Positions 11,405 through 33,867 of a DNA stretch of 64,000 nt are shown one piece after another (within the stretch, counting starts at the first letter, position 1; every line of letters begins with the position of its first letter). The notes beneath the pieces were generated by a model that made no database searches, had not been told where the DNA came from, and was given only the letters and a program-made list of their open reading frames with translations. The stretch lies in the IMG/VR virus record IMGVR_UViG_2630968395_000002. The stretch is one strand, 5' to 3'. Both the position numbers and the translations under genes were made by a program. The DNA comes from an uncultured virus (IMG/VR IMGVR_UViG_2630968395_000002) (lineage: Duplodnaviria > Heunggongvirae > Uroviricota > Caudoviricetes).

Positions 11405-12214
11405 TCAAAAGTCTTTTTCTAGCTGAATTCTTTCAATTAAAACCTCACCAGCACTCGATTCTTCAACATATAGCCAATGCATACATTCTTTAACCAGAGG
11501 CACATATTGCGCCGCCCAATCCCCACCGGATATCTCAGCCCCTATGATACCCATAGATTTGCGCAGGTGTTCCATTGTAGGCGGTATACGGCCACTGCCG
11601 CCGCACTCGTTGCATATTTCGGGATGAGGCCGCAGGGTTTTACCGGCACCGTGACAACGGGGGCAGACTTGCTTTATCGCCGCCTGATGATTAGCCCACG
11701 CCCGCAGTGCACCACGTTCTGTTTTGATTTTAGACTGAAGGGTTTTTATTTCGTCTGCCAGTAATGCGATAGTGCCATCATCAAGTGCCTGCGCTTTATC
11801 TCTTTCCAGTAATTTGATTTGCTGCTGGAGTCCATCAACGACTTTTCTGGTGATACCTGTACGGGAGCCGTAACGACGCAGTAAAGTGGCAATTTGCTCT
11901 ACCTGCGCCGGAAGGTTTCTATCCAATACCATATTAAGTGCCAACTGGCAGGCAGCAATAGCTCGCGCTGGATGTGGTCGCTTATGCAACCACCCACCTA
12001 TAACCGCCCGTAAGCGCTGCTCGGCTTGGCAGTCATTACGGTATTTGGTCATCAAGATATCGAAGCCAATGGGATGTTGGTGCTGGCAGGTGGCGAAAGT
12101 CCCTAATATCTGGTCTTTGGTCAGAACGGCACGACCCCGGCCAATATTCAGCGATTCAATGCTGACGCAGCGCGGATCGTGCATTTTAATAAGTTGTTCA
12201 ATTGCAGTGGTCAT
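11405..12214 (-). CDS. Q: Late antitermination protein Q (zinc-finger type)
   Basis: CPRCHGAG...CNECGGSG zinc finger; directly upstream of PR' and lysis genes. Confidence 0.8.
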   Translation of the reverse strand: MTTAIEQLIKMHDPRCVSIESLNIGRGRAVLTKDQILGTFATCQHQHPIGFDILMTKYRNDCQAEQRLRAVIGGWLHKRPHPARAIAACQLALNMVLDRNLPAQVEQIATLLRRYGSRTGITRKVVDGLQQQIKLLERDKAQALDDGTIALLADEIKTLQSKIKTERGALRAWANHQAAIKQVCPRCHGAGKTLRPHPEICNECGGSGRIPPTMEHLRKSMGIIGAEISGGDWAAQYVPLVKECMHWLYVEESSAGEVLIERIQLEKDF

Positions 12215-12219
12215 ATTGG

Positions 12220-12254
12220 TCAGTCCTGTGTTTTAAATTCACAGGACTGATTTT
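12220..12254 (+). terminator. 11-bp hairpin covering the Q RBS; plus-strand terminator of a putative anti-Q RNA
   Basis: TCAGTCCTGTG-TTTTAAATT-CACAGGACTGA + TTTT. Confidence 0.6.
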
Positions 12255-12306
12255 ATAGTTCATTTCACAAATCGCAATAATAATTAAATTATTGCAAAAA
12301 ATGAAA

Positions 12307-12525
12307 TCACTTTGTATTCCCATCATGTACGAAATCATCACTACCAACACGATGAGAACCATAAGCAACTTTATAATCAGAGTCATACTCGGCTCTTTTT
12401 TCTAAAGCTTCTTGCTCAGTATTAAATGTTTCAACAAAGTGCCACGGTGAATTGCGGAAAACTCCGTATCCGAGCACCCATCCTTTGTTATCTGGATCTA
12501 TTAAGAAACTACTATAGTTTTTCAT
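12307..12525 (-). CDS. Hypothetical protein (AT-rich)
   Basis: 72 aa ORF with SD GGGG, abutting the VRR-NUC stop. Confidence 0.6.
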   Translation of the reverse strand: MKNYSSFLIDPDNKGWVLGYGVFRNSPWHFVETFNTEQEALEKRAEYDSDYKVAYGSHRVGSDDFVHDGNTK

Positions 12526-12984
12526 TTAACCCCCAAGGTATTTGCCATTTACTAAGTAAGAAATAATAGCACCTTTAGCACTTAAGAAACTGTAGGAGAC
12601 ATCTACTTTGTAACCTATGTCGCCAAGTTTCGATAACCAACAATTCTGATTATTATTTACATGTCCCTTGCTACTCTTCATCTCTATCCACAACCCCGCA
12701 TACCCACCGCGCGGCAGCGCCAGAAACAAATCTGGTACGCCTTTCCTCAAACCTAGCCGCTTGGCATCCCTCGCCGCCTTTGGTCCACGTTTCCCTTCAT
12801 TGGGTATATGGATCAGATAATCCCCGATACAAATACCATCGATAACGGTTTTATCTGCCCACTCAATCAGCGCTGCCTGTTCTTCGGTTTCTGCCTGGTG
12901 GTTAACCTTGTGAACCGTTCCATTTCGTACTTCCAGCTTGGCTTTTGTTCGAACAAGGTCAATGGCATCAATTTTATTTATCAA
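12526..12984 (-). CDS. VRR-NUC domain nuclease/resolvase
   Basis: HIPNEG...GVPDLFL...LWIEMK PD-(D/E)xK pattern. Confidence 0.88.
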   Translation of the reverse strand: MINKIDAIDLVRTKAKLEVRNGTVHKVNHQAETEEQAALIEWADKTVIDGICIGDYLIHIPNEGKRGPKAARDAKRLGLRKGVPDLFLALPRGGYAGLWIEMKSSKGHVNNNQNCWLSKLGDIGYKVDVSYSFLSAKGAIISYLVNGKYLGG

Positions 12985-13916
12985 ATTTTCGTCAGTTTAT
13001 CGTCTAATAGATAGTTATATTTTTCTGGAAGGAGAGCAAATTCGCCCCAACCCAAACCTGCCAAACACAAACCAGTCCCACTCTTTTCAACTATCCCATA
13101 CATAATAATGTAGCGTCCCTGGCTATCAGTTCGGATCCCTTTATCTTGAGCATCTTTATTTTCTTGCTTAAAATAAAAATCAGAGTAATTGTCATTTCTT
13201 GGCCAATTCAATCGAGTCATCCGTATTGAGTGATCCAAAGGTTTTTTACTCCAACTACTTAATATTTTTCCAAAATATAGCCTTGGTGAATCAGTAATAT
13301 CTTTAATCACTTTTATATCAACCAACAATCTGTCAAGACGTTCCGCATTTTTTTCACCAGGTAAAACAAAGAACTTATAGTAATTATTGTCAAAATTCCG
13401 ACAAAAACCTGCGACTGTAGTTATTACATTTGGCAAAGAAAAAGACTCACCTGTATGCCTGCCAATAGCAACTTCCGACAAACCACCATCGATATCTTCT
13501 AAATAGTTTTGATCGTAAATTCCGATTTCAGACTTTTTTATTTCAGGGCGATCTGTCATAAATGCTTTCACAATTGTCAATTGATCATCTGAAATCGCTT
13601 TTTTAGCTTCTTCTTCGTTTAAATATCTTTTCCCTTCAGCTGGTTTAGAACGCAAAAAACAAGGTACATCACGAAAAGAACGTAGATGAGCAAAACTGGC
13701 GTTTCGACCATTTGTTGTCGTATCCTTATGTTTCGGCCTTCTAGTCAGTGGTGTAAAGCATTCTGGGCAGAAAATAGCTTGATCCATCTCTAGGGTAAAT
13801 TCACTAGGTAGAACTCTTCGCCCCTGAGACTTTAAAACTGGAATTGAGTGTATCGTCCTTTTCCATGTTGAATGAAAATAGGCAAACTTGATTCTAAAGG
13901 TGCTTTGATCTTCCAT
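12981..13916 (-). CDS. AT-rich accessory protein with an N-terminal CxxC...H...C zinc finger
   Basis: ~311 aa; IFCPECFTPL...ASFAH...PC; composition differs from flanking nin genes. Confidence 0.75.
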   Translation of the reverse strand: MEDQSTFRIKFAYFHSTWKRTIHSIPVLKSQGRRVLPSEFTLEMDQAIFCPECFTPLTRRPKHKDTTTNGRNASFAHLRSFRDVPCFLRSKPAEGKRYLNEEEAKKAISDDQLTIVKAFMTDRPEIKKSEIGIYDQNYLEDIDGGLSEVAIGRHTGESFSLPNVITTVAGFCRNFDNNYYKFFVLPGEKNAERLDRLLVDIKVIKDITDSPRLYFGKILSSWSKKPLDHSIRMTRLNWPRNDNYSDFYFKQENKDAQDKGIRTDSQGRYIIMYGIVEKSGTGLCLAGLGWGEFALLPEKYNYLLDDKLTKI

Positions 13917-13987
13917 GCATTCCACCAAATTGGTTTAAATATAAAGTAACTCTTATCAATTATTTTAAGTTCGTTCAATGACACACA

Positions 13988-14308
13988 TCATTTTTCAATC
14001 AGTTGGATGAGGCCACAACAGAAAAAATATTTAAAAGTTAAATGTAATGCCAATAATATCGTTTCCTCAAGCTCTCCGGGCTGCCAGTTATAAGGCACCC
14101 GGCCATCAATAACATCATGGCAGCAGTTACACCCAAATACGGCCCAGTAGTCATCTGACTTATACCCCATGCCGTGGGTTGAACTGGGTAAATGGCACAA
14201 TACCGTTGTTTCTGGATTGCTGTTACAGATGCCGGGTATCTGGAGCGTGCAGCATTGGCCCCGCGCAGAATCGCGCAGGGCTTTGCTTCTAAATGCCGAA
14301 GATTTCAT
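13988..14308 (-). CDS. DUF1364 (YbcO-like) nuclease-domain protein
   Basis: ARGQCCTLQIPGICN...TTVLCH...GMGYKSDD...CNCCHDVIDGR. Confidence 0.85.
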   Translation of the reverse strand: MKSSAFRSKALRDSARGQCCTLQIPGICNSNPETTVLCHLPSSTHGMGYKSDDYWAVFGCNCCHDVIDGRVPYNWQPGELEETILLALHLTFKYFFCCGLIQLIEK

Positions 14309-14309: not shown

Positions 14310-14957
14310 TCAATACTCCAGCAACCGGTTAACTGCCTGTTCCATCTCATACTCGTCATCAAAGTGCTGGCCTAATGTCTCATTCCAGATAACACCGGCC
14401 ACCCCTTTATAAATTCGGTCAAAAACGCCCTGATCCATATTCACGAACGCAATACTCCAGCGCTGCTTCAATGTGCCGCCCTCTGGGTTGGGCATCAGGT
14501 CATAGAATCCGGCTTTGATCATGACGTGGTTGAAATAAGCGGAGTCCGTCTTTACCGCCTCTCCATCAAACCTTTTCTGGCGCTGCCTGATTACTCTGTC
14601 TAGCACCGCCTGAGCGATAGACTTTGTCACCTTCTCATAGAGTTCCGGATCTCCTGCAGCGCTGCCCACAGCTTTAGCTACCTCGTGAGCTATCCACTCT
14701 TCAGGTGCGCTAACAAAGGTCCAATCCGGTACCCAATAAGAGAACCCCAGCTCGAGCAGTTTCCAGAACTTACGGTGATGCTTCAGGTTGCGCCGGTCAC
14801 CAATTGGGCTCATTGAAATTGGAGTGCCCGCAGGCACCCCCTTCATAGTTTCCCGATCATGGTCAGTGGCGTACTTGATTCCACCCCCAGGTAACAGCAC
14901 GCCCAATACTTCAGTCTTTTTCTTTCTCGGGGACTTAGTTCGCGGTGCTGTTGTCAT
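14310..14957 (-). CDS. DUF1367 family nin-region protein
   Basis: RNLKHHRKFWKLL...SIAFVNMDQ motifs. Confidence 0.8.
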   Translation of the reverse strand: MTTAPRTKSPRKKKTEVLGVLLPGGGIKYATDHDRETMKGVPAGTPISMSPIGDRRNLKHHRKFWKLLELGFSYWVPDWTFVSAPEEWIAHEVAKAVGSAAGDPELYEKVTKSIAQAVLDRVIRQRQKRFDGEAVKTDSAYFNHVMIKAGFYDLMPNPEGGTLKQRWSIAFVNMDQGVFDRIYKGVAGVIWNETLGQHFDDEYEMEQAVNRLLEY

Positions 14958-16699
14958 GCCGCCACCTCATCGCGATCTACACACATTTCTGGCAGATTGG
15001 CCCGAACCAGCGCTTCCGCAAATGGCGGTGGCACCGCATTACCACAGCGGGCTACCTGCTTATCTTTGGCGTATTTAGTACCGGTGTAATCGCGGTCGAT
15101 GATGTACCAGTTCGGGAAACCCTGCGCGGCGTAAAGCTCATGCGGCTGCAACATACGCATACCGATATCCACAATCTGATAATCAATGCCCTCGACCGTC
15201 ACCAGACCGAACCGGTCATTGGTGGTCACTGTGTGCAGGGGGCCATTCAGGCTAACACCCTCTTTCTCATTGCCGTAATACTTGAGTAAGAAAGCACGAA
15301 CCTCACCGATATGCAGACCACCGGCAGTGATTGTTGGCATTGGCTGGGTAACCTGCTGACCGTCTTTGCAAGTGCCGCGCAGCTTTATCAGGTTAGAAGT
15401 CACCAACGCATGATGATCAACCGTTGTCACTGTGTGGGCTGGCTGATTCAGATCAGCGCCTGAGCCGGTATAGTTGCCGCCGAAGTGTTTAGCCAGGAAT
15501 GCAGAAACAAGCCGAGACTTGCCACCTCCACCCGCTGTAATAGTACCGCTTGGATCATCAACCACATGCCCCACACTATTACCAAACTCACGAGCAATGA
15601 TCGGGGCGACAAGAAGGTGTTCAGCCTTACTAGTGATTGTCGTTAGTGGTTTACCCACTTCATACGCCATACGATCGCCACCAAAACCGGTTTGACCGAT
15701 ACGGGCTATGATTGGAGTGACCAATGAGAAGCCAGGCGTTTTGGTAATGGCCTGCAACGGATCAATTAATGGCTGCCCCCGGAAACAGTCATATGTAGTT
15801 TTACTGCTGGTGTGGTTACACTTCACGATAAACGGCGTGGGGTTATCCATAACGAAACGTTGAATGCCCCGCGCAATGCGTTTGAGGGTGTTCTCCGCTA
15901 GCGGTTTCTTGCGATCGAAAATACTCGGGCAAGGAATTGACCAATCAATACACTCGGCGGCGGTGCGCCACGGTTTACGGTGTCCGCTCTGAACTTCCAA
16001 TAATTTTGGATCGCCGTGAGTCGGCTCCGGCCACACTACTGGCAAACCATCACAACGCATTACCATAAAGAAGCGCTTTCTGATGGTTGGCGCACCATAA
16101 TCACTGGCCCGAAGTTCTTTGTGATCAACGACGTATCCCAAACCAGCCTGCAGTCGTTTAGCATCTATACTATTGATATCAATCCCTAAAACCTCGCAGC
16201 ACTCCTGTAACGCTGGATGTTCGGCATCAATACCCGTAGTCAGCATCGCTACAAATGCGGCGAATGTCTCACCCGCGCGGGCGGGATCGGGGTGTTCTGT
16301 GCCATCTTCGGCAGTCAGTAGCGGTCCCCACGTTTTAAACTCTTCCACATTTTCCAGCATCACTACTCGAGGCTTTTTCGCTAACCCCCAACGAATCAGT
16401 ATCCACGCTAAACCACGGATCTCTTTTTTAACTGGCTTACTGCCCTTCGCCTTACTGAAATGGCGGCAATCAGGGCTGAACCATGCAAGTCCGACAGGTC
16501 TGCCGGCGGTCGCGGCCACGGGGTCAATATCGAATACTGACTCACAATAATGCAGGGTGTCGGGGTGATTGGTGGTGTGCATGGCGATAGCATTCGGATC
16601 ATGATTGATGGCGATATCAACACTGCGCCCGGTTGCCATTTCGATCCCGGTAGAAGCCCCACCGCCACCAGCAAAATTATCTACGATGATCTCTTTCAT
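14954..16699 (-). CDS. DNA cytosine-C5 methyltransferase
   Basis: FAGGGG motif I, SPDC motif IV, ENV motif VI, RKRFF motif VIII, GNAV motif X. Confidence 0.95.
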   Translation of the reverse strand: MKEIIVDNFAGGGGASTGIEMATGRSVDIAINHDPNAIAMHTTNHPDTLHYCESVFDIDPVAATAGRPVGLAWFSPDCRHFSKAKGSKPVKKEIRGLAWILIRWGLAKKPRVVMLENVEEFKTWGPLLTAEDGTEHPDPARAGETFAAFVAMLTTGIDAEHPALQECCEVLGIDINSIDAKRLQAGLGYVVDHKELRASDYGAPTIRKRFFMVMRCDGLPVVWPEPTHGDPKLLEVQSGHRKPWRTAAECIDWSIPCPSIFDRKKPLAENTLKRIARGIQRFVMDNPTPFIVKCNHTSSKTTYDCFRGQPLIDPLQAITKTPGFSLVTPIIARIGQTGFGGDRMAYEVGKPLTTITSKAEHLLVAPIIAREFGNSVGHVVDDPSGTITAGGGGKSRLVSAFLAKHFGGNYTGSGADLNQPAHTVTTVDHHALVTSNLIKLRGTCKDGQQVTQPMPTITAGGLHIGEVRAFLLKYYGNEKEGVSLNGPLHTVTTNDRFGLVTVEGIDYQIVDIGMRMLQPHELYAAQGFPNWYIIDRDYTGTKYAKDKQVARCGNAVPPPFAEALVRANLPEMCVDRDEVAA

Positions 16700-17571
16700 G
16701 ATGTTGCTCCCATAGCGGCGGTGAGTGTTGTGGCGGCGGCAATGATGGCATCAGACGGAATACCGTCTAATTTCATACGGTTGATATTGCCTAAGATTTT
16801 ATGTTGCAGGTCGGCGGGTAATTCAGCGGCACCCGATATTTTGCTGAAATACAGATTTACTTCGACCGGCCAGACGGTGTTGCCAGTTTCCGGTACTGGA
16901 ATATTTTTCGGCTGGTTTTGTGGTATCAGGCGCTCAGCCTCTCTGCGGATCTGCGCTAAAAATGCCTCACCAGTGGCAAGTAATTGCTCACGGGTGATAT
17001 AGCTAATCGCAGGGCCACGCCATTCCTTATCGAAAATGGCAATAGCCGCACCAAAACCCGCATTGCAGGCAACTTGAGTGTTATCTTCGGGACGGAACCA
17101 AGCCGGTACTTCAAAGCCAATTCTGCCGCGAATGAATGCAATATGGTCTGCTTCTTCAGGCCACCACACCTCTGACGTTGCCGCTTTGGTCAAATAGACA
17201 TAGCGACCGCCGCGCTGCCGCATTTCGGAGGTATAAGCCATGATGTGCCGCATGCCAGTGATATATTGCCCTTCATGCTTTTTCGCCGTGCTGTAGGGAG
17301 GGTTAGCAAATGCAGCGCCATTCAACTCGGTCAGTTTCGTAGCCCAGTCTTGAGTGAGCGAGTTATCTTCCGCAGTGTAATAAGCGGGTGTTTTCGCATT
17401 CTCGCAATCACTGAACAGATCCAGAACTAACGGGCCAAACATCGCATTGATACCCCAAAACAAAGCATCTGGCGTGCGCCACTGGTCGCCAATTAATTTC
17501 AACTTATGTGTTGGGGCGGACTTGAGAGCGGCCAGATCATGAACATATTGGGTATTGGAGAAATCAATCAT
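16696..17571 (-). CDS. Phage N6-adenine DNA methyltransferase (phage Dam family)
   Basis: DQWRTP, LDLF, NPPYS, FIRGRIGF. Confidence 0.9.
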   Translation of the reverse strand: MIDFSNTQYVHDLAALKSAPTHKLKLIGDQWRTPDALFWGINAMFGPLVLDLFSDCENAKTPAYYTAEDNSLTQDWATKLTELNGAAFANPPYSTAKKHEGQYITGMRHIMAYTSEMRQRGGRYVYLTKAATSEVWWPEEADHIAFIRGRIGFEVPAWFRPEDNTQVACNAGFGAAIAIFDKEWRGPAISYITREQLLATGEAFLAQIRREAERLIPQNQPKNIPVPETGNTVWPVEVNLYFSKISGAAELPADLQHKILGNINRMKLDGIPSDAIIAAATTLTAAMGATS

Positions 17572-18494
17572 GCTGCACACCCCTTATTAATTGGATACGC
17601 AGATAAAATACTTTCGATACGAGCTGGAACCAGTTCAGCGTATGCTGGGTTCAATTCGCAAAGAATAGCTTTACGACCACTGCCGATAGCGACGCCAGCA
17701 GTCGTGCCACTACCACCGAATGGGTCCAAAATCACGCCACCAGTCGGACAACCAGCCAAAACACAAGGTTCAATTAGTGCTGGCGGGAAAGTAGCGAAAT
17801 GAGCTTCTTTGTAACCACGAGTGGCCACAGTCCAAACGTTGCGCTTTGCCCGCATACCATCAGAGACAGTATCTTTACGATCAGCACGATGGGTACCCAC
17901 ATTTTGCCCAGGTATAACTACCGCTCGCTTACTGTCTTCCCGCTTGAAGTTATCGCGGGCAGATATCCTGCCGCGATTTCTGTCACTCTTATCCATGCCA
18001 TGCCCAAAGCCGACGCCGGTATTTTTACCGCTGTAGACAGATGGTTCTCTAATTGCCTCATGATCGAAGTAATAGCTTTTCGACTTACTCAGCAAAAATA
18101 TATATTCGTGGGCTTTGGTACAGCGGTCACGCACGCTTTCTGGCATAGGATTGGATTTGTGCCAGATAATGTCTTGGCGAAGGATCCAACCGTCATTTTG
18201 TAACGCAAAGGCAAAACGCCATGGCATACCATTCAATTGCTTCCCTTTGTCCCAACTATCCCCCATGTTTACCCATAAAGTGCCATCATCACGAAGAACG
18301 CGGCGAACCTCACGAAACACCGCGACAAGCCGTTGAATAAACGCCGCAGGGCTTTCCTCTAAACCAATCTGCCCTTCAACACCATAATCACGTAGCCCAT
18401 AATATGGCGGGCTGGTAATGCAGCTATGAACGGACTGATCTGGCATTTTGCGCATTGAGTCTATGCAATCACCGATAAAAATCTGGTAACTCAT
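17568..18494 (-). CDS. N4-cytosine/N6-adenine DNA methyltransferase (beta class)
   Basis: TSPPY, HFATFP, LDPFGGSGTT. Confidence 0.93.
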   Translation of the reverse strand: MSYQIFIGDCIDSMRKMPDQSVHSCITSPPYYGLRDYGVEGQIGLEESPAAFIQRLVAVFREVRRVLRDDGTLWVNMGDSWDKGKQLNGMPWRFAFALQNDGWILRQDIIWHKSNPMPESVRDRCTKAHEYIFLLSKSKSYYFDHEAIREPSVYSGKNTGVGFGHGMDKSDRNRGRISARDNFKREDSKRAVVIPGQNVGTHRADRKDTVSDGMRAKRNVWTVATRGYKEAHFATFPPALIEPCVLAGCPTGGVILDPFGGSGTTAGVAIGSGRKAILCELNPAYAELVPARIESILSAYPINKGCAA

Positions 18495-18838
18495 TGCATG
18501 CCTCCTTGCGTGGTAGGAACCAGACGATAAAACCAAACCCGCTTGCCGCTATCATCGTTACGGACAATTTTGACCTGTTTAACCAACCCATGGCGGACAG
18601 GATTAATTTCACGCAGACGAGCACTTATAGCGGCCTGGGTATCACCTTCACCGGGGAACATCTGAGACATCAACTTTTCGAGTTCGCGCAGTGTCCGCCA
18701 ATCAGCACCACTTGCGGCGGTGATCACGCGGTTTAACTGGCTGTTTGCATCACTTATACGGCCAGCTAATTGCATGGATCTTACTGCGTTATTGATACCA
18801 ACCCTTTCGGCATTGGGTACGTGTGGTTTGATCACCAT
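18491..18838 (-). CDS. Hypothetical winged-HTH-like phage protein
   Basis: WRTLREL...AISARLRE...WFYRL; coupled to neighbours. Confidence 0.65.
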   Translation of the reverse strand: MVIKPHVPNAERVGINNAVRSMQLAGRISDANSQLNRVITAASGADWRTLRELEKLMSQMFPGEGDTQAAISARLREINPVRHGLVKQVKIVRNDDSGKRVWFYRLVPTTQGGMQ

Positions 18839-19974
18839 TACGCGCCCTCCCCAGCAAGCACTTCGCGGGTCCCGTCTGGTGCGGGTTGGGACACAATGCC
18901 TTCAGCCTGCATTCTTTCAATCAGCCATGCGGCACGGTTATAGCCAATACGGAGTTCACGCTGTAGCCCCGAAATTGAGGCTTTTCCTTTCGCCTTGGTG
19001 AAGTTCACTGCTTCTGGATAGCGATCATCATCGTCCCGTTCTACTCCATCCAAATCTACCCATGAACTGCTGGTTGCCTCGCCGCCCAGCGCATCCACTA
19101 GATGGGCAATCAGTGCGGCCAGTTCACCCGCCATCAAAATAAAATCGGCATCAAAACGCTGCGCGTAATCCTCGCGGTCGATATCGTCGTTCCGCTCCAG
19201 CAGCGTGGTGCTGTATTTCACTCTCTTCAGGCTGCCATCGTCGGACAGCATAAAGCTAATGCGCCCCTGCCACTCCAATGCCAACTTGGTCACCAGCTTA
19301 CCGGCGGCGATATGCCCACGGATCTCGTCACTGACTAAATCCTGATGTTTACTGCGCAGAATGCCGCCCTGCTCCAAAACGGCTTTAAGCTCGGCTTCTT
19401 CCTGTAAGATGAATCCCGCAGGCGCAGCGCCAGAGCGCAACCACTCGGTTAACGTCAGTTCAATCGGGGTCTCCAGTGTCAAAGGGACCACAGGCAGAGA
19501 ACCCATGGTTTTGCGCAGCAATGCCAACGCATTTTCAGCTTTCCGCGCGCTGGCAGCATCAATGATAATTAACCCGGCCCCTGCGTTAATCCAGATGGAT
19601 GTTGTAGAGTATTTGCTAAAGGCCCGAGGCAATAGAGTCTGGATAACTTCATCTTTCAGCGAGTCTTTTTCTGTTTTTTTCAGTTTACGATGTTGCTCTT
19701 GCTCCAAACGCTCAACTTTACTCGCCAACTCACGAGCGATAACCGGGGCGGGTAAATCCTTTTTTTCACACTGCAATGTGATAAGGATTTGCTTGTTAGC
19801 CACATGCGCAAGCGTTGCGCTTTCGTTACCCATTGGCGATATCCAACCGGTTTTCGCCATATCCTGACTGCCGCACGGTGTGAATGCGAACTGCGCCATT
19901 TGCTCTTCCAAATCAGCGAAAGAAACATCGCGAGATAATTTGTAAATCAATACATTCTTGAAATTAATGCTCAT
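18838..19974 (-). CDS. rdgC: Recombination-associated RdgC with a C-terminal FtsK-gamma domain
   Basis: FKNVLIY...FTPCGSQD...GW RdgC N-terminus; [24 protein letters not shown]tsK-gamma. Confidence 0.9.
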
Positions 19975-19977
19975 TGG

Positions 19978-20754
19978 TCAGTCCTCGGTAATTTTATTAT
20001 TTTGCAAACCGTGGTCGGCGGTCTGCTGCAATGACTCTTGGTATTTGTGTTCCAGAGACGCTTGTAGCCTAATACTTTCATCACGCCATGTGCTTTCTCG
20101 CGCCTCCTGATCCTGCTTAATTCTCCCCTTCAGTTCGTCTAAAAATTGTCGTATTTTTGTGGGTACTTCATTCCCAGCCTTCCCCTTTTCTGGCAACAAC
20201 AACTGATACTTTTCGGCTTTAGGTCTGGGAAGCAATCCTGTTGTTACGGCCTGCTCAACGGTACGTTTTACTGTCTCTTTGTCCCATCCTTCAGACACTG
20301 ACCATGACGGTGATCGGCCTGTCCCTTGCGCTGCCTTAGCCAATCGTTCATAAGCAGCGATAAAAGCCATACGTGCGCCAATTTTGTCGCCCTCCTGCAT
20401 GATTGGCTGGGCAATACTCCATGCCTGGGCAATTTCATTCGTCCAAACCACGGTGTTAGCTTCATCTTGCGCGGGTAATGCCAATGCCCACGCCTCATTC
20501 GCTGAGAGCCAATCTGGTTTACCGTCAATATTTTGGATATTGCGGATAATATCGGCGGGCTTAGGTGAAAACCGGCCTTGTTCTGGATCTATCACCCAGT
20601 TGCTGAACGCTTGACGCACAGTTTCAATGTCGTATGGCAGTAAAGCATTCCAATAAATTTTTAGTACAGCCTTGGATCCGTCTTTGCCGTAGATCGCCAA
20701 AATAGCTTTCATGATCTCAGCAAATTCTCGTTTTTCAGTCTCTGCTTCCCGCAT
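19978..20754 (-). CDS. Replication protein P-like (helicase loader position)
   Basis: Follows O; GRFSPKPADII motif. Confidence 0.6.
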   Translation of the reverse strand: MREAETEKREFAEIMKAILAIYGKDGSKAVLKIYWNALLPYDIETVRQAFSNWVIDPEQGRFSPKPADIIRNIQNIDGKPDWLSANEAWALALPAQDEANTVVWTNEIAQAWSIAQPIMQEGDKIGARMAFIAAYERLAKAAQGTGRSPSWSVSEGWDKETVKRTVEQAVTTGLLPRPKAEKYQLLLPEKGKAGNEVPTKIRQFLDELKGRIKQDQEARESTWRDESIRLQASLEHKYQESLQQTADHGLQNNKITED

Positions 20755-20757
20755 GGA

Positions 20758-24776: not shown

Positions 24777-24790
24777 CACTGAGAACTACT

Positions 24791-25260: not shown

Positions 25261-25308
25261 AGTGATTTTACTGCTGCCCTTGCGCGCGAGGGCTTCGGCA
25301 AGTTCACT
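25261..25308 (+). repeat. Structured intergenic element, copy 2
   Basis: Same fold as 24729-24776 with compensatory changes. Confidence 0.7.
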
Positions 25309-25327
25309 ACCGATAAGGAATAAGACT

Positions 25328-25606
25328 ATGAGCACCAGTAAGTATCGATGCGAAAAGTGCAATAAATTTAAGCAATTTGATCGGTCGATGCTGAAAGTTG
25401 GCGACAAGGTTGAATTCACCAAAATATCAAGTAATGGTCGGTCAGTTCGCATGTCGTCCGTAACCGGTAAGATTATCTTTATTGATGGTGACAAAGTGTC
25501 AATTAACTATAGAGGCACTTTATGCCGGAAAAGCCTAAATGAAGTAAATCCGCTAGATGCTCCATCTGGATTGTCGTACGCAATGATAGGGATTTGTATC
25601 TGTTAA
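25328..25606 (+). CDS. Hypothetical Cys-containing phage protein
   Basis: SD TAAGGA; CEKC...LKVGDKV...CIC. Confidence 0.65.
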   Translation: MSTSKYRCEKCNKFKQFDRSMLKVGDKVEFTKISSNGRSVRMSSVTGKIIFIDGDKVSINYRGTLCRKSLNEVNPLDAPSGLSYAMIGICIC

Positions 25607-25632
25607 TAGAGATATTCCCCGTAACGGAAAAG

Positions 25633-26100
25633 ATGAAGACCATTGAGGAAAGTATATTGGACACATTAAAAGTTAAGACTCCAACCAACCCAAGTAGAAC
25701 CGCAACTGCCCGAGTGAAAAACCCCCTTCCTGCTCCTACTAATTGCCTTTTTTGTTCAGGTAACGTTCACGTCGCCACGCACCAGCAAGTCTATGGCCGC
25801 GACTACAGCGACTGGCCTTACGTCTATTTATGCCAAGGCTGTGGTGCGTATGTGGGCCTACATCCATTCACTGCTATTCCTTTAGGGACTCTGGCAGATA
25901 AGGCAACCCGACAAGCCAGAAAATCATGTAAAACCCCGTTTGAAAATATCTGGCGCTCAGGGCATATGTCCCGCTCTCAAGCATACGGTTGGTTAGCGGC
26001 GAAAATGGAGATCCCCACAGAGCAGTGTCACTTTGGTTGGTTTGATATTAAGCAGTGCCAGCAAGCGAAGCAGATATGTGAAGGCCACTCCCCAACCTGA
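25633..26100 (+). CDS. DUF3268-like zinc-finger protein
   Basis: CLFC...YLCQGCGAYVGLHP...PLGTLAD...CHFGWFD. Confidence 0.85.
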   Translation: MKTIEESILDTLKVKTPTNPSRTATARVKNPLPAPTNCLFCSGNVHVATHQQVYGRDYSDWPYVYLCQGCGAYVGLHPFTAIPLGTLADKATRQARKSCKTPFENIWRSGHMSRSQAYGWLAAKMEIPTEQCHFGWFDIKQCQQAKQICEGHSPT

Positions 26101-26115
26101 TCTATGAGGTGCATC

Positions 26116-26442
26116 GTGAATGAATACAACTATCAGCGAATGGCTGAGCAATCGCTGGAACAGTATGACCGCATATTACTGTCGGATCCCAACGAGCAAG
26201 AGGAATTAGACAAGCGGATTGAGTTTCTACGCCGCAATTCAAAAATGCTCAACGCCTTTAAATCCGCTGTCCAAAATAGCTGTTTTGTTGCTGGAGCGAG
26301 TACCGGCCACCTTGAGTTACTTACCGAAACTGCCGCTATGGAACTTTATCTGGATGAGGTACAGGAGGAAATATTTCTCCGGGTTGCCAAGGCCGAGCGA
26401 GCAATGGAATTAGACGCTGAGAAAGACCACCTACTCCAATAA
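26116..26442 (+). CDS. Hypothetical protein
   Basis: SD GAGG before GTG; acidic helical ORF. Confidence 0.65.
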   Translation: MNEYNYQRMAEQSLEQYDRILLSDPNEQEELDKRIEFLRRNSKMLNAFKSAVQNSCFVAGASTGHLELLTETAAMELYLDEVQEEIFLRVAKAERAMELDAEKDHLLQ

Positions 26443-26473
26443 AGAGAAAAGCCCCAGCGATTAAGCCGGGGCT
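26441..26473 (-). terminator. Minus-strand terminator inside the plus-strand PL operon
   Basis: AGCCCCGG-CTTAATCG-CTGGGGCT + TTTCTCTTT. Confidence 0.7.
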
Positions 26474-26582
26474 ATCCCAGGAGTGCGGGACCAACCGCAA
26501 ACCTACTGAGGACTGAACAATAACCACGAGGATTATTATCAGCGTGGTTGAGTGACCAAACCCAACCATGGGAAAGCATACC

Positions 26583-26732
26583 ATGACTATTGAATTCATC
26601 AAGACACTCCAGTATCGCCATCGTGTGACTGGTGACGACATTAACCAGTATCCCCGCCAGTCTGGCCTGAAATTCTTCTTCGCATGCGTTTTAGGCGCGT
26701 TCATGTTTCTTGCTATCGCTGTCAAAATTTGA
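26583..26732 (+). CDS. Small membrane protein (49 aa)
   Basis: MTIEFIKTLQYRHRVTGDDINQYPRQSGLKFFFACVLGAFMFLAIAVKI; C-terminal TM; alternative in-frame ATG at 26568. Confidence 0.65.
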   Translation: MTIEFIKTLQYRHRVTGDDINQYPRQSGLKFFFACVLGAFMFLAIAVKI

Positions 26733-26742
26733 GGACTGACCA

Positions 26743-27585
26743 ATGACCACTCAAGCAGTAACAACCAATCTTCCACCCGCAGTGGTGGGGTTGAATATTG
26801 ATGAACCCACCTGGAACGCACTGAAAAATAGTATTTACCCTGGCGCTAAAGATGATTCAGTCATCATGGCGGTGAGTTATTGCCGCGCCCGCCAGTTAGA
26901 TCCGCTGATGAAACCCGTGCATTTAGTGCCAATGAGCGTGAAAGATGCACTAACCGGTAAATATGAAATGCGCGATGTGGTGATGCCCGGCGTTGGCTTA
27001 TATCGCATACAGGCTGACCGTTCCGGTAACTATGCCGGAGCGCAAGAGCCAGAATTTGGCCCAGATCTGACGCAAGCCTTTAATGGAGTAGAAATCACTT
27101 TCCCTCAGTGGTGCAAATACACACTGAGCAAACTCATGCCTAACGGCACTATCGTGGAATTCAGCGCAAAAGAGTACTGGCTGGAAAACTATGCCACCGC
27201 GGGTCGTGATACCCAGGCACCCAATGCTATGTGGAAAAAGCGGCCTTATGGGCAATTAGCCAAATGTGCCGAAGCGCAGGCATTGCGTAAAGGGTGGCCA
27301 GAAATTGGTCAGCAGCCAACAGCGGAAGAGATGGAGGGTAAAAGTCTTGATGTGACTGAAACTAAAGAACACAGCCAGGGCAGCCAACAACCTACCCAAC
27401 CGCAAGCACTACCAGAATATAGCGCGGAACAATTTCAACGCGCTCTGGCTGATTGGACAACGCTGATCAATAAGGGCAAGAAAACCGCTACGCAAATCAT
27501 CAACACCATCGAAAGTAAATACACCCTCACCCCGGCACAAATTAAAACAATCGAACATCTGGAGGCAGAAGATGCAAATCATTAA
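26743..27585 (+). CDS. bet: Phage single-strand annealing recombinase Bet
   Basis: LDPLMKPVHLV...YRIQA...MWKKRPYGQLAKCAEAQALRK. Confidence 0.9.
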   Translation: MTTQAVTTNLPPAVVGLNIDEPTWNALKNSIYPGAKDDSVIMAVSYCRARQLDPLMKPVHLVPMSVKDALTGKYEMRDVVMPGVGLYRIQADRSGNYAGAQEPEFGPDLTQAFNGVEITFPQWCKYTLSKLMPNGTIVEFSAKEYWLENYATAGRDTQAPNAMWKKRPYGQLAKCAEAQALRKGWPEIGQQPTAEEMEGKSLDVTETKEHSQGSQQPTQPQALPEYSAEQFQRALADWTTLINKGKKTATQIINTIESKYTLTPAQIKTIEHLEAEDANH

Positions 27586-29176
27586 TGTTCAACAAGGTAC
27601 GCAAGAATGGCACACATTACGTAGCCGCCACTTTACCGCCAGCGAAGCCCCAGTAATGATGGCAACTTCCAGCAAAATGCGCCGGGATGAATTGCTGAAC
27701 ATGAAGGCCACAGGATCGGAACGAGAAATCAGCGATTGGGTACAAACAAACTTGTTTGATAAGGGCCACGCGCAGGAAGCCACTGCGCGGGTAATCGTAG
27801 AATCCATTATCGGTACCGAATTATTCCCAGCCACGGCCATCGATGATGATGGCTATTTGTTAGCTTCCTTTGATGGTATGACCATGATGGAAGATGTGCT
27901 GTTCGAACACAAAATGTGGAATGCCACTCTGGCGCAAGCAGTAGCAGATAAAGATTTGCCGCCAGAATATTACTGGCAGTTGGAGCAACAACTTGCCGTA
28001 AGTGATGCTGAAAAAATCATTTTTGTAGTATCGGATGGCACCAAAGAAAACTTTGTCTGGATGGAATATTTACCAGTACGCGGGCGGCGCAAGGAATTGA
28101 TGGCAGGTTGGCAGCAATTTGAGCAGGATTTAAACGGTTACACAGCCCCTGAGATCAAAGATATCCCGCAAGGCAAAGCCTTGATGCGCCTCCCCGCTTT
28201 ATTGGTAGAAATCGAAGGCGCAGTAAAAGAGTCAAACTTGGCGGTCTACCAGAATCAGGCACTGGCCTTTATTCAATCTATCAATACTAATCTGGTGACC
28301 GATCAGGACTTCGCTGACGCAGAAGAAACGGTTAAGTTTTGTGAAAAGGCCGAGAAAGAACTGGATCTGATTAAGCAGCAGGCGCTGTCTAAAACTGAGC
28401 AGATTGATCTGCTGTTCCGCACCATTGATACCTTGCGTGATGAAATGCGTAACAAGCGGCTGGACCTGTCGAAACTGGTTAAGTTGCGCAAAGAGGCTAT
28501 TCGCCTTGAGATACTGAACAAGGCAAAAACCGCTCTTGCCGAGCACATTTCCAGTATCAATAAACAGTTGGCGATTGTCACTCTACCCACTATCCCGGCT
28601 GACTTTGCCACGGCCATCAAAGGCAAGAAAACCCTCACGTCTTTGCAAAGTGCCGCCAACGATGAACTGGCCCGAGCCAAGATAGCCGCTAATCAAGTGA
28701 GTGAAAAATATCAGGCCAATTTAACGCTATTTACTGATATTGAACCGGCTTATAAAAACCTGTTTGCTGACATCAACCAAATAATCGGCCTTGAGCATGA
28801 ACATTTAGCGCTGATGATTGAGCAACGCATTACCAGGCAAAAACAGATAGAGGAACAGCAGAGACAGCAAGCAGAGCAACAACAGGAAGAATTGAAAAAA
28901 CGGCAACTGGCCGCCGCAGCGGTCACAACTGAAATCGTCGCTGTAAGCACTGCTACAACTGCCCATCAGCCGTTGCACCCCGCGGGAGCAGTGAGTTTCC
29001 CTGAACAACTGGGTAAAACGACAAATGAAACAAAAATAGCAACGCCAGTTGACCTGATTGCACAGATTAATGCTGATTTGGTTACGGCAGGCATTGATCT
29101 TACTACTGAAACAGTTTACCGCCTGTACCAGGCGGTAAAAGCTGGTCGGATCCGCTATTTCTCTATCACGCAGTAA
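27572..29176 (+). CDS. YqaJ-like exonuclease with coiled-coil extension
   Basis: QGTQEWHTLR...TASEA...LASFDG...FEHK...YYWQLEQQL. Confidence 0.9.
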   Translation: MQIINVQQGTQEWHTLRSRHFTASEAPVMMATSSKMRRDELLNMKATGSEREISDWVQTNLFDKGHAQEATARVIVESIIGTELFPATAIDDDGYLLASFDGMTMMEDVLFEHKMWNATLAQAVADKDLPPEYYWQLEQQLAVSDAEKIIFVVSDGTKENFVWMEYLPVRGRRKELMAGWQQFEQDLNGYTAPEIKDIPQGKALMRLPALLVEIEGAVKESNLAVYQNQALAFIQSINTNLVTDQDFADAEETVKFCEKAEKELDLIKQQALSKTEQIDLLFRTIDTLRDEMRNKRLDLSKLVKLRKEAIRLEILNKAKTALAEHISSINKQLAIVTLPTIPADFATAIKGKKTLTSLQSAANDELARAKIAANQVSEKYQANLTLFTDIEPAYKNLFADINQIIGLEHEHLALMIEQRITRQKQIEEQQRQQAEQQQEELKKRQLAAAAVTTEIVAVSTATTAHQPLHPAGAVSFPEQLGKTTNETKIATPVDLIAQINADLVTAGIDLTTETVYRLYQAVKAGRIRYFSITQ

Positions 29177-29220
29177 CCTTTCATCACCTGCCTCGACAGG
29201 CAATTCACAGGTAATTAATC

Positions 29221-30360
29221 ATGACCACACAGGCCACCACTGCCAGTGTGCTGGAGTCATCCCTGCGTCCAGTTCGGGCGCAGTTAGACCTTGCCATTGA
29301 GCAGACTACCGGCACCGCACAGCGCTCTATCGAGAGCGCTACTGTTTTACTCAACCAAACACAGTCCCTATGTATTGAACAACTCAATATCGAGACTGAC
29401 GAATACAACCTTTTATTCGACCGTTTAGAGAAAGCTGAGAACGACCTAACCACGAAATCCTTGGCATTAACGCATGTACAGGAACGCATAGAAAGCGCTG
29501 ACCTGGTAGCCGCTGAAGCGAATGCCCAGAGAGACAGTATTTCAGCCAAATACAACCTTTCAATTTCTGATCAACGCGTGTTGGCCACTGAAGTGAATCG
29601 GTTGAAATCACTTAACCCTGAAAAAATGAAAATCCAAATCGTGCGGCTGAAAGATGAACTGGACAACAAGCGCACGCTGTTAAACCAGCAATTGACGGAA
29701 ATCCGGCGGTATAAAAAAGAGGCGGCAGAAAGAACCAGCAAACTGGCGGCCATGGTCAATGTTAACAACCAACTGGCTAATACTGTTTCAGACCTTACCG
29801 CACGGATCCAGCGCATGGATGGGGACGTCGAGCCCACTTATTACCGTGGTAATGATGGCACTGAGTTTTACTTTTACACCTTTCAGTGGGGGTTGAAGCT
29901 CCGCTCTGGTGATTATGATATGCAGCTTATTAACGATATTGACTGGCATATTGAAATCCGTTCCACCACGGGTATTGGCCTGATCGTCTCTGTTAATGAG
30001 TGGGCATTGCCGGTCTACCCCATGGTTGATGACTTCAAACGGAACTGGCCGGATGGCCTAACGCCTGCTGTTACACAGCGCATTCGTGACCTGCTTGAAC
30101 CAACTCACCCGCACCTGGTTAAGCGGGCGGAATGGGCAGAGTCTGTGCTTACCGAAACTCTCCCCTTGAAAGAGCAGTATTTAGAACTGCTGGCCCGCTC
30201 TGGGCTCCATTCATTGTTTGATGTTGTTCGCCGAACGCCTGACATGTTGGCTAATGCAGTCAAAGGTTTCGGGATCGCAAGCGCTCGCCAAGTGCATGCT
30301 CAATGCACCCGAATCGTAAAAGAGTGGGAATCAGAGCAGAAACAGAAGGAAGCCGCATGA
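29221..30360 (+). CDS. Coiled-coil protein with a C-terminal RNAP alpha-CTD/HhH-like domain
   Basis: ~200 aa coiled coil; LARSGLHSLFDVVRRTPDMLANAVKGFGIASARQV. Confidence 0.7.
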   Translation: MTTQATTASVLESSLRPVRAQLDLAIEQTTGTAQRSIESATVLLNQTQSLCIEQLNIETDEYNLLFDRLEKAENDLTTKSLALTHVQERIESADLVAAEANAQRDSISAKYNLSISDQRVLATEVNRLKSLNPEKMKIQIVRLKDELDNKRTLLNQQLTEIRRYKKEAAERTSKLAAMVNVNNQLANTVSDLTARIQRMDGDVEPTYYRGNDGTEFYFYTFQWGLKLRSGDYDMQLINDIDWHIEIRSTTGIGLIVSVNEWALPVYPMVDDFKRNWPDGLTPAVTQRIRDLLEPTHPHLVKRAEWAESVLTETLPLKEQYLELLARSGLHSLFDVVRRTPDMLANAVKGFGIASARQVHAQCTRIVKEWESEQKQKEAA

Positions 30361-31620: not shown

Positions 31621-32480
31621 GCAAAATAATATCGGTAAAAATGGCAAGGCCCAGTGAAGATGAAGTGAAATCTCTGTGGCAACTCTTTCACGCCACTGAA
31701 GCAGCAGAAGACCGCTGGCACAGAGAATCATCCGCGCAATTTTTAGAACGCTTTGACGATCAAGAAATCAGTGACGAGGAGCGCACATTTATTGCCGTTG
31801 CGTGGGATTCCCTGGTACAAGGCCACGGCGGCTTTGGACGCTTCATGGGGGCTTATGACACCCTGATATATAATTTCCAAGATCCAGATGCTGACCACGT
31901 TGCAACACATCCTAAATTTAATGCTCTTCTGACGGAATCAGAGCTATTACCAGTGGTATTTGAGGGTTATCACGAGGCTAAAAATACTATTGCAGATCTG
32001 GAAAAAAAGAATCAAATGTTGGCTATTGAAAACATGGTGTTGCAAGAAAAAGCAGCGCGGGAATTATCCGGAGCGTGGATCATGAACCGGCTAGTTGTTG
32101 GTTCAATCGCAGCAATTTCACTTATTCACGCCGGGCAATTTACCAGCGCAAAGGATTGGTTGCTGGAAAATATGGAGGGTATAGATATTGATATTCCTAC
32201 CTATCAATCAGACACACAATTAAATGAATGGGCCAAAAGTCAGCAAGAGGGGTATTTAACCCACACTCAAGCACTGGAAATTATTAAGCAACAAATACCA
32301 GAAACGGCGCGGGTAATTAATGAATATCAGGCGCAGGGAGTTGAACTGGCAGCGGATGGATTCCACAAGTCGGTATTCTCTGCAATTGAAGAGGATGGAG
32401 TGATCAAGTCTCTTTTATATATCAAAGCTGACTTAATACAGTTCGCCGCCAACCTGCGAGGTGAGCATAATGTCAGATAA
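31617..32480 (+). CDS. Ead/Ea22-like accessory protein
   Basis: Coiled coil with IPETARVINEYQAQGVE...FAANLR C-terminal motif. Confidence 0.65.
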   Translation: MSKIISVKMARPSEDEVKSLWQLFHATEAAEDRWHRESSAQFLERFDDQEISDEERTFIAVAWDSLVQGHGGFGRFMGAYDTLIYNFQDPDADHVATHPKFNALLTESELLPVVFEGYHEAKNTIADLEKKNQMLAIENMVLQEKAARELSGAWIMNRLVVGSIAAISLIHAGQFTSAKDWLLENMEGIDIDIPTYQSDTQLNEWAKSQQEGYLTHTQALEIIKQQIPETARVINEYQAQGVELAADGFHKSVFSAIEEDGVIKSLLYIKADLIQFAANLRGEHNVR

Positions 32481-32950
32481 GGAATACTGCTATCGCTATG
32501 TAGATAGTAATGACTCGAAAGGCCGACCAATCGTAATGCTGTGGCAAATGGTAATTCTACGGGAGACAGAAAAGACATTTTGGTACTGCCCTGACTACCC
32601 GAACATGAGTCTTGAGCAAATTATTAAATATCAAGGATCAAGGTAGACCGGGGAACCGTCAAGTTAAACGCAGTCTTAAAAATGCTGCCCGTTCCCGCTA
32701 TCACTACACAAAAGAAGAAGCATTAAAGGCTTTTATTTACCGCAAACAATATCAGTTAGAACGAATCCGGCTAACAAGCGAAACCGTGTCGCTTTGCCTT
32801 AAAGGGATAGGTGAGGCTGGTTTTGTTGAAATCAGTAAAGACGGTGAATTCAACAGTTTTAGCAACATTCTATCTGTTCCCGAAAAAGACTTTCGCGCGG
32901 CAGAAGAAGCTGGAGAAGTAGCCTCGACGTATCGCTGGGGAGAATATTGA
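32470..32950 (+). pseudogene. Hypothetical gene frameshifted by a 7-bp tandem duplication
   Basis: ATCAAGG x2 at 32630-32643; removing one copy joins ORFs 32470-32646 and 32612-32950. Confidence 0.75.
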
Positions 32951-33043
32951 TGAATAACATCGACGAAGAGACAGAACCATTTTTCATCTATGGAGATGAC
33001 TTAACGGACATGGTTCTGACCGTACAACAGGCCGGAGAGGGGA

Positions 33044-33547
33044 ATGCAGATGCTGAGTAAAGAGCCGGTACGAATTCGGCACAATTGGGATTCAGCAGTA
33101 GTAGCCGAATGTGATTTTTGCAGTCACACAAAAATGACTGTTCCACGCGCCGACAGTGGGCGTATTTGTGCTTCATGTTGTGATTCTGAGTTTTTATCAA
33201 GTTGGCAGGGTTACGCGAAAAGTCTGGAGACTGAGATTCTATCACTGCGTGAGCAATACAAATCACAGAGCAATGAACTTACTGCAATGACAGCAGCAGC
33301 TCAAGCGTTGCGTGATGAAATGTATAAATGTGATGCGAAATTAGAGGCCCTGGCAGCGTTACCGCCGGTTGGCGGGGTCATCAGTAAAAAGCTGATTGGC
33401 TGGAGAACGGAGGATTATACGCACGAAACAAATAACATTGAATTAGCCCGAAACTGGGCACCAAATGTTGGTGTTCTTCCGATATTTGAGGGCGATATTA
33501 ATACCAGTATTTCCACTACCACGATTGACACCACGCCGCTGTATTAA
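33044..33547 (+). CDS. Hypothetical zinc-finger/coiled-coil protein
   Basis: CDFC...ICASC then coiled coil. Confidence 0.65.
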   Translation: MQMLSKEPVRIRHNWDSAVVAECDFCSHTKMTVPRADSGRICASCCDSEFLSSWQGYAKSLETEILSLREQYKSQSNELTAMTAAAQALRDEMYKCDAKLEALAALPPVGGVISKKLIGWRTEDYTHETNNIELARNWAPNVGVLPIFEGDINTSISTTTIDTTPLY

Positions 33548-33651
33548 TATTCAATAGATGTATCACTAAAACATAGCCCCTTACCACCACAGACCAAACG
33601 ACCATAATAGGGCGCAGCATCGTTGCGTCCTTTCCTACTGAGGAAAGACCA

Positions 33652-33867
33652 ATGACCAAAATACTGACTCGCACTGAATTAGAAGAGATCACTGGTTTTG
33701 TACAACCCAAGAAACAGTGTGAATGCTTACGTGAAAGTGGCATTTTTTTCATCGAGCGTAAAGATGGTAGACCTAGCACAACATGGGCGCATGTTGAGCA
33801 CCCTATCTCTTCCCGCAATATCATTCATAGCATGCCTGAAGACCAACCTAATTATGGGGCTATTTAA
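33652..33867 (+). CDS. xis: Excisionase-like DUF4224 protein
   Basis: LTRTELEEITG...KQCECLRESGIFF...DGRP; directly upstream of int. Confidence 0.85.
   Translation: MTKILTRTELEEITGFVQPKKQCECLRESGIFFIERKDGRPSTTWAHVEHPISSRNIIHSMPEDQPNYGAI

Follow-up and report, generated by a model that had tools for sequence, protein, structure and literature searches.

A 15-nucleotide (nt) motif that is repeated at translation starts was analyzed in a 64,000-nt stretch of DNA from an uncultured virus of the Caudoviricetes (IMG/VR record IMGVR_UViG_2630968395_000002; the whole stretch is referred to as the window). The motif, GAGGACTGACCAATG, here termed the tag, is made up of a Shine-Dalgarno (SD) sequence, a spacer and the ATG start codon. 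It is real, conserved and phage specific and is present at the starts of genes in both early operons of a lambda-like prophage. A complement of the tag, termed the anti-tag or seed, is located in the predicted leader RNA of a late promoter positioned between the gene for a Q-like antiterminator and the late genes. A small RNA derived from this pR′-type leader probably occludes the early-gene start sites by pairing with the tag. The sequence-only reading of this DNA had suggested a shared site for an antisense RNA or an RNA-binding protein, and the antisense form of that suggestion was supported by this concrete partner in the late leader, which was kept in 42 of the 43 primary leaders detected among 47 Q loci with 54 to 100% Q identity.

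The exact tag was found four times in the window, compared with no match in any of 100 dinucleotide-preserving shuffles. These copies are located at the starts of an RdgC-like gene (tag, 19972-19986, minus strand; gene, 18838-19974, 378 amino acids [aa]), of a 120-aa gene that is next after the cro-like gene (tag, 22148-22162, minus strand; gene, 21788-22150), of an N-like gene (tag, 24118-24132, plus strand; gene, 24130-24375, 81 aa) and of a RecT-family gene (tag, 26731-26745, plus strand; gene, 26743-27585, 280 aa). When up to three mismatches were allowed, 8 matches were detected relative to an expectation of 1.41, and 8 matches were reached in 0 of 100 shuffles. A variant tag, CAGGACTGACCAATATG, is found at the start of the Q-like gene (tag, 12212-12228, minus strand; gene, 11405-12214, 269 aa); the match itself, at 12214-12228 on the minus strand, reads CAGGACTGACCAATA and is followed by TG, with the Q start at 12214. 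Another variant, GAGGAAAGACCAATG, is found at the start of the excisionase gene, xis (tag, 33640-33654, plus strand; gene, 33652-33867, 71 aa). The search with up to three mismatches also returned a copy with ATA in place of ATG (26508-26522, plus strand), which looks like a decayed start; a relative, L208, has the intact ATG form of this site, opening a 70-aa open reading frame (ORF) whose C-terminal part matches the window ORF at 26568-26732. The match at 15712, within a methyltransferase gene on the other strand, is likely a chance hit. All of the copies described from the sequence alone, namely, the four exact start-site copies and the variants at Q, xis and the ATG-less 26508 site, were therefore re-found.

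Each ATG-bearing copy in the window opens an ORF. In the copy at rdgC, the TGA inside the tag is the stop codon of the upstream gene (19978-20754). Counting its common flanks, the tag has TGA triplets at 7-nt intervals: one precedes GAGG, one is internal, and a third overlaps the ATG if the next bases are ACC. This spacing results in a stop in each of the three frames (for example, at window positions 24115-24137).

The identities and order of the genes indicated that this is a lambda-like early region with divergent operons. Family matches upheld the names rdgC, Q and xis given in the sequence-only reading. The product of 18838-19974 (minus strand) matched RdgC in Pfam and has, in addition, a C-terminal FtsK-gamma domain of the KOPS-binding type; that of 11405-12214 (minus strand) is a Q-like antiterminator (phrog_127); and that of 33652-33867 (plus strand) is an excisionase whose gene adjoins the integrase gene (33867-34889). 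The gene previously called bet (26743-27585, plus strand) instead encodes a RecT-family annealing protein (PHROGs and Pfam). The 81-aa product of 24130-24375 (plus strand) had no family match in PHROGs or Pfam, and the name N is retained on account of its position, downstream of a repressor with helix-turn-helix and S24-peptidase domains (within 22373-23224), and its arginine-rich N terminus. Likewise, the 120-aa product of the gene in the cII position (21788-22150, minus strand) had no match in either database. Neither this protein nor the KTSC protein had an RNA-binding annotation in the PHROGs and Pfam results.

In the six whole genomes that were analyzed, exact copies of the tag were confined to a single prophage each. 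In the nearest genome, G001 (4.9 Mb), 5 of 5 matches at up to one mismatch were located within 11 kb of one contig, a prophage stretch; the reversed pattern, used as a control, gave 1 match. In five further whole genomes (4.1 to 4.7 Mb), all 27 exact matches to the 13-mer core fell within one prophage per genome. Ten IMG/VR records contained 1 to 8 copies each at up to two mismatches, with 4 to 8 copies in eight of the ten; many single matches to the 15-mer in metagenome contigs were at an estimated chance level, and only multicopy proviruses were utilized. A scan of 185,579 species genomes with an 18-mer yielded 27 matches. Ten were in Yersinia similis, Brenneria (two species), Pectobacterium (two species), Symbiopectobacterium and an Aeromonadaceae metagenome-assembled genome (MAG), while the other 17 were single copies in unrelated, mostly high-GC taxa and were set aside, the chance estimate being ∼17. 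A megablast search with window positions 18000-30000 against named phage records gave no match. An estimate of breadth from an order-level scan with another 13-mer, TTTATTGGTCAGT (106 of 301 genomes), was dropped as the pattern was nonspecific: 20 of 20 sampled matches were in unrelated DNA, consistent with a Phe-Ile-Gly-Gln reading frame, and four of five such genomes had no tag.

A survey of 69 sources (the window, 12 early-region loci, 9 genome loci and 47 Q loci, with some records present twice) detected 245 sites at up to two mismatches, and the ATG was at positions 13 to 15 in 208 of these. Deduplication left 142 unique contexts, of which 120 open an ORF of at least 40 aa. These ORFs grouped into 17 BLAST-linked protein families, the largest being the 120-aa protein (26 contexts), Q (21), RdgC (20), the N-like protein (13) and an acidic protein of 144 to 155 aa (12). 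The tag is, hence, portable between unrelated genes. The other 22 contexts consisted of 8 inverted late-leader copies, 5 Q starts with a spacer longer by 2 nt, 7 "orphan" or mini-ORF forms and 2 truncated genes. An absence of the motif from orthologous starts in relatives had been named beforehand as an outcome that would refute the regulon; the tag was conserved at such starts in every relative examined. In relatives, a conserved ACC AC follows the ATG of the tag, and many of the tagged proteins begin with Met-Thr-Thr. A more distant lineage with different genes, represented by provirus G009 (L155, L254 and L255) and by the Aeromonadaceae MAG loci L163 and L164, had the exact tag at two starts and near-copies at three more but neither a homologous leader nor an antisense copy.

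For tagged starts, the SD pairing predicted with a 16S tail motif was -5.1 to -7.0 kcal/mol. No known target site of a DNA methyltransferase was recognized among the letters of the tag. The idea of an extended pairing of the tag spacer with the 3′ tail of 16S rRNA was dropped, as two bulges were needed and the SD energies were ordinary.

When the opposite strand was searched for sub-words of the tag, two adjacent matches were detected between Q and a holin-like gene. A site resembling a late promoter is present directly 3′ of the Q stop codon on the strand of Q and the late genes (11369-11397, minus strand), with a −35 element TTGACC (11397-11392), a 17-nt spacer and a −10 element TAAATT (11374-11369). 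This −10 sequence is also used by lambda pR′. Among 26 unique contexts from relatives, TAAATT was kept in all 26 and a TTG-type −35 element at the right distance in 25, while the 17-nt spacer and the upstream DNA varied freely. Conservation of the hexamers against this variable background indicated that the promoter is real. The late promoters of lambda-like phages are constitutive and give a short terminated RNA in lysogens; a short RNA from this promoter has been known for decades.

The leader RNA predicted for this promoter from the sequence and its fold is ∼106 nt in length with an approximate 5′ end (11259-11364, minus strand). It would contain a GC-rich hairpin followed by six U residues (hairpin 1 and U run, about 11357-11325) and end with a GC-rich terminator hairpin, also followed by six U residues (hairpin 2, about 11291-11259), both on the minus strand. 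Between these hairpins lies the anti-tag, ATTGGTCAGT-tcc-GGTCAGTCCTG (11324-11301, minus strand), consisting of two 10-nt complementary segments. Segment A, ATTGGTCAGT (11315-11324, minus strand), is the exact complement of tag sequence ACTGACCAAT, and segment B, GGTCAGTCCTG (11301-11311, minus strand), is the exact complement of (C)AGGACTGACC. The holin-like gene starts 27 nt past the leader and has its own SD sequence after hairpin 2. By sequence and predicted fold, the leader thus shares two features with the pR′-tR′ class, namely, a late promoter after Q and before the lysis and late genes and an intrinsic terminator ahead of the first late gene. Across the whole window, no Rfam match attained the gathering score of its family, and nothing relevant was found at E values of up to 10 in 11000-12600.

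Single-sequence folds predicted hairpin 1, an open seed and hairpin 2. The mean unpaired probability of the seed was 0.73 in the unduplicated form of the leader described below. In the duplicated leader of the window, segment A was predicted to pair with a downstream CUGACUA (0.33 unpaired), and segment B was largely in or next to a loop (0.62 unpaired). Among 24 unique leaders that were aligned, variation affected the stems and loops, and the U run and seed were nearly invariant. RNAalifold detected three pairs with compensatory changes on both sides in hairpin 1. It misdrew hairpin 2 because indels shift the alignment; this hairpin is therefore based on the single-sequence folds and on paired deletions visible in the alignment, its variation among leaders being the paired deletion of one base pair.

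Conservation of the anti-tag was assessed in the 47 Q-homologue loci, which had been gathered with the Q protein. A primary leader was present in 43. In the other loci, BLAST detected a diverged leader (L208 and L211), both segments were located 278 nt after Q (L215), or a truncated Q was found with no leader (L225). At least 10 exact complementary bases were present in 42 of the 43 primary leaders, with lengths of 14 nt in 9 loci, 13 nt in 6, 12 nt in 2, 11 nt in 2 and 10 nt in 23. In the exception, L232, there is a single C-to-U change that retains a G-U pair. The distant relatives have one uninterrupted copy, in the order hairpin 1, U run, TATTGGTCAGTCCTC and hairpin 2, with 14 exact complementary bases. 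As read from the letters, this complement, one A-U pair and one G-U wobble would give a 16-bp duplex extending from the SD sequence through the AUG. The exact 13-mer matches in the five whole genomes include one leader copy per genome, at the position where BLAST locates the leader.

The position complementary to the ATG reads TAT, not CAT, in 23 of 23 leader copies (20 unduplicated and 3 duplicated) detected at up to three mismatches, a threshold that most duplicated leaders of the window type do not reach. No reverse-strand ORF starts at any of these 23 copies. These two findings indicated that the leader copy is not the start site of a gene on the opposite strand.

Leader modules without the seed provided a further control. 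Ten paralogous modules all had seven or fewer complementary bases, and at least nine of the ten share the −10 element, the initial transcribed sequence and hairpin 1 with the primary leader but differ in the terminator. The existence of these modules indicated that the seed is not needed for promoter function, Q loading or termination. In a Pectobacterium prophage (G015:C13), the primary leader is homologous but has an unrelated sequence in place of the seed, and this prophage had no tag at up to one mismatch and no repeated start 14-mer within 40 kb; this co-absence of seed and tag is a single case.

Several relatives carry such a paralogous module, with a different terminator and no anti-tag, as a second late-promoter module ∼8 kb downstream of the first; the window has one module. 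These second modules were located at L224:19184-19268, L226:12902-12985, L227:20196-20279, L231:19963-20048, L233:19038-19123, L199:13717-13804 and L203:14077-14161 and were also found in L239, L240, L246 and L247. Their presence suggests a second Q-dependent transcription unit. The spacer in L246 contains a 13-nt stretch that is one mismatch from the anti-tag.

The mechanism proposed from these data is as follows. The late promoter just downstream of Q would produce a short leader RNA, corresponding to lambda 6S RNA and StxS, in which the complement of the tag is exposed between the two hairpins with their U runs. If RNA containing the seed accumulates and pairs in vivo, the duplex would cover the SD sequence and start codon and would block 30S binding on all of the tagged mRNAs at once; the direction of control would then be repression. 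In the window, the targets would be the N-like gene, the 120-aa gene after cro, rdgC, recT, Q and xis. In a lysogen, the leader could mop up leaky transcripts of the N-like, Q, xis and recombination genes and, hence, set a threshold for induction. After Q action and genome replication, an abundant leader might shut off early translation, including that of Q itself. The timing would depend on hairpin 1: if this hairpin is an efficient terminator, then the seed would be made mainly in the Q-modified state and the shut-off role would be favored.

The Q start may be subject to an additional level of control. A predicted hairpin extends over the Q ribosome-binding site (12220-12250, minus strand), in which an upstream arm (12250-12240) forms 11 bp with the SD portion of the tag at Q (12230-12220). 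According to fold models, the Q start thus seems to be covered in cis by its own copy of the anti-tag, the sequence that the leader would provide in trans. Related or alternative hairpins were predicted at Q starts in relatives, with G-U changes in the arms, different loops or an arm pairing with ACCAATG. The SD window was mostly paired in the predicted folds of 23 of 41 unique relative contexts, according to a crude score from a fixed 8-nt window whose alignment does not hold in all contexts.

Predicted duplexes between the seed and start sites were compared for tagged and untagged genes. Energies were -27.0 to -30.8 kcal/mol for five tagged starts and -20.8 kcal/mol for xis, relative to -5.1 to -23.1 kcal/mol for eight untagged starts of the same prophage. 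The five tagged starts were in the top seven of 242 ORF starts in the window, a ranking that is descriptive and is not an independent test, the search for a complement having been prompted by the motif. This circularity counts against the antisense reading, and a number of other observations do so as well. Hairpin 1 and its U run are terminator-like and may end most transcripts before the seed when Q is absent. Complementarity of 10 to 14 nt to 4 to 8 phage start sites is conserved, without covariation between seed and targets: no compensatory changes were present in the table of 47 loci, in which both sides are nearly invariant and, therefore, too conserved for the comparison to be informative. 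Variant tags with a G-to-A change, GGACTAACC, occur in several relatives and are not mirrored by seed changes. In L208 and L211, whose Q proteins are 70 to 71% identical, the seed has decayed to seven or eight complementary bases while three to six tag copies persist. Five tag-like starts were detected in the complete provirus G009, although it lacks a leader homologue and any complement of at least 10 nt; the tag can, therefore, exist without an antisense partner. Finally, pairing with the leader does not account for the conserved ACC AC that follows the ATG; these bases are outside the footprint of the seed.

A broader form of the antisense reading is offered tentatively. The leader RNA might be a family-wide switch in which one seed of 14 to 16 nt silences the tagged starts of the N-like, Q, xis and recombination genes, both in the resident prophage and in any superinfecting tagged relative, whatever its repressor specificity. 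It would then provide RNA-based cross-immunity in addition to a timer for late shut-off, and the tag might double as a junction for cassette exchange at which new genes are born wired in.

Exchange of cassettes also forms the basis of an alternative raised in the sequence-only reading, that the tag is mainly a recombination linker. On this account, a RecT/RecE-type phage system or a host system swaps cassettes between relatives at the tag, the tag persists by traveling with the cassettes, and the leader copy is a relic of one such swap. Short conserved sequences at gene boundaries that flank exchangeable cassettes feature in the linker hypothesis of lambdoid mosaicism and in the promoter-stem-loop cassettes of the T4 type. 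Those sequences are promoters and terminators or unspecified linkers, whereas the tag is a ribosome-binding element with an antisense partner. The arrangement of flanking DNA fits such exchange. Upstream flanks of N (three unrelated classes) and of Q (at least five unrelated classes among Q proteins that are at least 83% identical) break within 0 to 3 nt of the tag; two xis alleles have the tag and the initial ∼17 coding bases in common but differ from there on; and members of 17 unrelated families follow tag copies. The three-frame stops of the flanked tag would suit a universal junction, and G009 carries the tag in the absence of an antisense partner. In L148, L149, L152 and L154, the insertion point of an 83-aa gene coincides exactly with the tag, and a tag copy is present on either side. 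This cassette, of 455 bp (L148, about 8650-9120, and likewise in the other three), is located at the tag of the 120-aa gene, one tag preceding the cassette gene and one the displaced gene. As a complete explanation, however, a linker appears unlikely. A relic in noncoding DNA would drift, but the leader copy was kept in 42 of 43 leaders at the same place between the hairpins while the neighboring stems and loops changed, and every leader copy detected has TAT rather than CAT. Furthermore, 15 to 23 bp is marginal for homologous exchange, and the gene boundaries of lambdoid phages are mosaic joints with or without linkers. The flanked cassette and the joints abutting the tag support this alternative in part, and cassette exchange is likely a second role of the tag beside antisense pairing and not a replacement for it.

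It is decidedly improbable that the tag is recognized by a protein that targets RNA or ribosomes, such as a phage-encoded repressor of translation or a nuclease comparable to T4 RegA/RegB, or is simply a favored initiation region, with the complement in the leader being irrelevant. The exact SD/ATG register in 208 of 245 sites would fit any recognition at the level of translation, modest SD pairing leaves room for a helper or repressor, and conservation of ATG ACC AC past the region covered by the seed points to a further constraint. No protein emerged as a candidate, however, and a conserved, unpaired and exact complement in the leader would be left unexplained, as a decoy for a protein would carry the sense sequence.

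Least probable, and very unlikely, is that the tag acts as a double-stranded DNA site, like the stoperators of Cluster A mycobacteriophages, which are asymmetric DNA sites bound by repressor, with the leader copy blocking late transcription: the tag is asymmetric and co-oriented with transcription in both early operons, one copy is between the late promoter and the late genes, and a site readable on either strand needs no special explanation for an inverted copy, but stoperators have no fixed start-codon register and the register of the tag would have no rationale, an internal duplication has divided the leader copy in the clade of the window into two pieces of 10 nt, with the contiguous DNA site lost and RNA pairing kept, and the C-to-U change in L232 and the universal TAT for CAT retain G-U pairs, which is neutral for RNA and not for DNA.

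With antisense pairing as the preferred reading, the system was compared with known phage elements. By sequence it is a member of none of them and is likened to StxS and lambda 6S RNA in origin and to the P1 c4 RNA in action. StxS, the short pR′-tR′ transcript of Stx phages, is an Hfq-binding, trans-acting small RNA, as shown experimentally; its targets include a ribosome-binding region in its own phage (stx1B) and host rpoS, and such leaders are proposed as a general source of small RNAs (PMC7547250). The leader predicted in the window would be similar to StxS and to lambda 6S RNA in being a short RNA from a Q-controlled late promoter, ended by intrinsic terminators between Q and the late genes. 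It differs in that no sequence relationship was found and the leader has no Rfam match. Moreover, StxS acts on one phage gene and host rpoS, whereas here one seed is predicted to match the tag of four to eight of the phage's own early genes, including the N-like gene and Q.

The c4 RNA of P1 and P7 has the ant operon as its one target and is released by processing from that same transcript. This RNA pairs around the ribosome-binding site of a phage mRNA and blocks translation (PMC12197685). As in that description, a small phage RNA would present short complementary segments in unpaired regions that are complementary to a ribosome-binding site, here by prediction. In contrast to c4, the RNA would come from a late promoter and have many targets in both early operons, and no Rfam match was obtained in the window.

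The start-associated sequences (SAS) of Cluster K mycobacteriophages are short asymmetric repeats a few bases before start codons, mostly ATG. They are restricted to nonstructural genes, absent from the host genome and found ahead of different families, with one reversed site in several genomes (PMC3203893). Their function is left open in that text, binding by a host or phage product, RNA or protein, being mentioned, and stoperators appear in passing (PMC3203893). The tag shares with these repeats, as described there, a repeated asymmetric motif in the ribosome-binding position of many nonstructural genes that is not found in the host. The 13-mer consensus of SAS is, however, unrelated to the tag and comes from another host phylum and phage group, making the tag an analogue and not a member. 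In addition, the tag includes the ATG itself, and no antisense partner is known to have been described for SAS. An open-access full-text search found no paper describing the circuit proposed here, the letters of the motif or its complement.

This phage family offers a directly testable function for the short RNA of a late promoter, with one seed and many identical targets among its own early genes, both antiterminators included. If correct, the antisense reading would add a posttranscriptional layer to the lysis-lysogeny circuit, would suggest how start-site tags such as the SAS repeats could work and would represent a compact natural design in which many genes are corepressed by one small RNA.

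Other features of the window were also observed. Three DNA methyltransferase genes in a row (14954-18536, minus strand; 581, 294 and 322 aa; phrog_116, phrog_111 and phrog_67) are located between rdgC and a NinB-like gene. A gene for a 227-aa zinc-ribbon protein (23169-23852, plus strand; Pfam Zn_Ribbon_1) is present between the repressor and N-like genes. GC content is low at 12001-14000 (0.39), where ORFs without a family match are located just upstream of Q, and at 36001-40000 (0.31 to 0.39), beyond the integrase gene, relative to ∼0.50 elsewhere in the window. A small hairpin, TGCGG-GACCAA-CCGCA, is present immediately before the decayed tag (26484-26499, plus strand), and the same hairpin is found immediately before the N-like start in L150; it resembles a stem-loop of the boxB/nut type.

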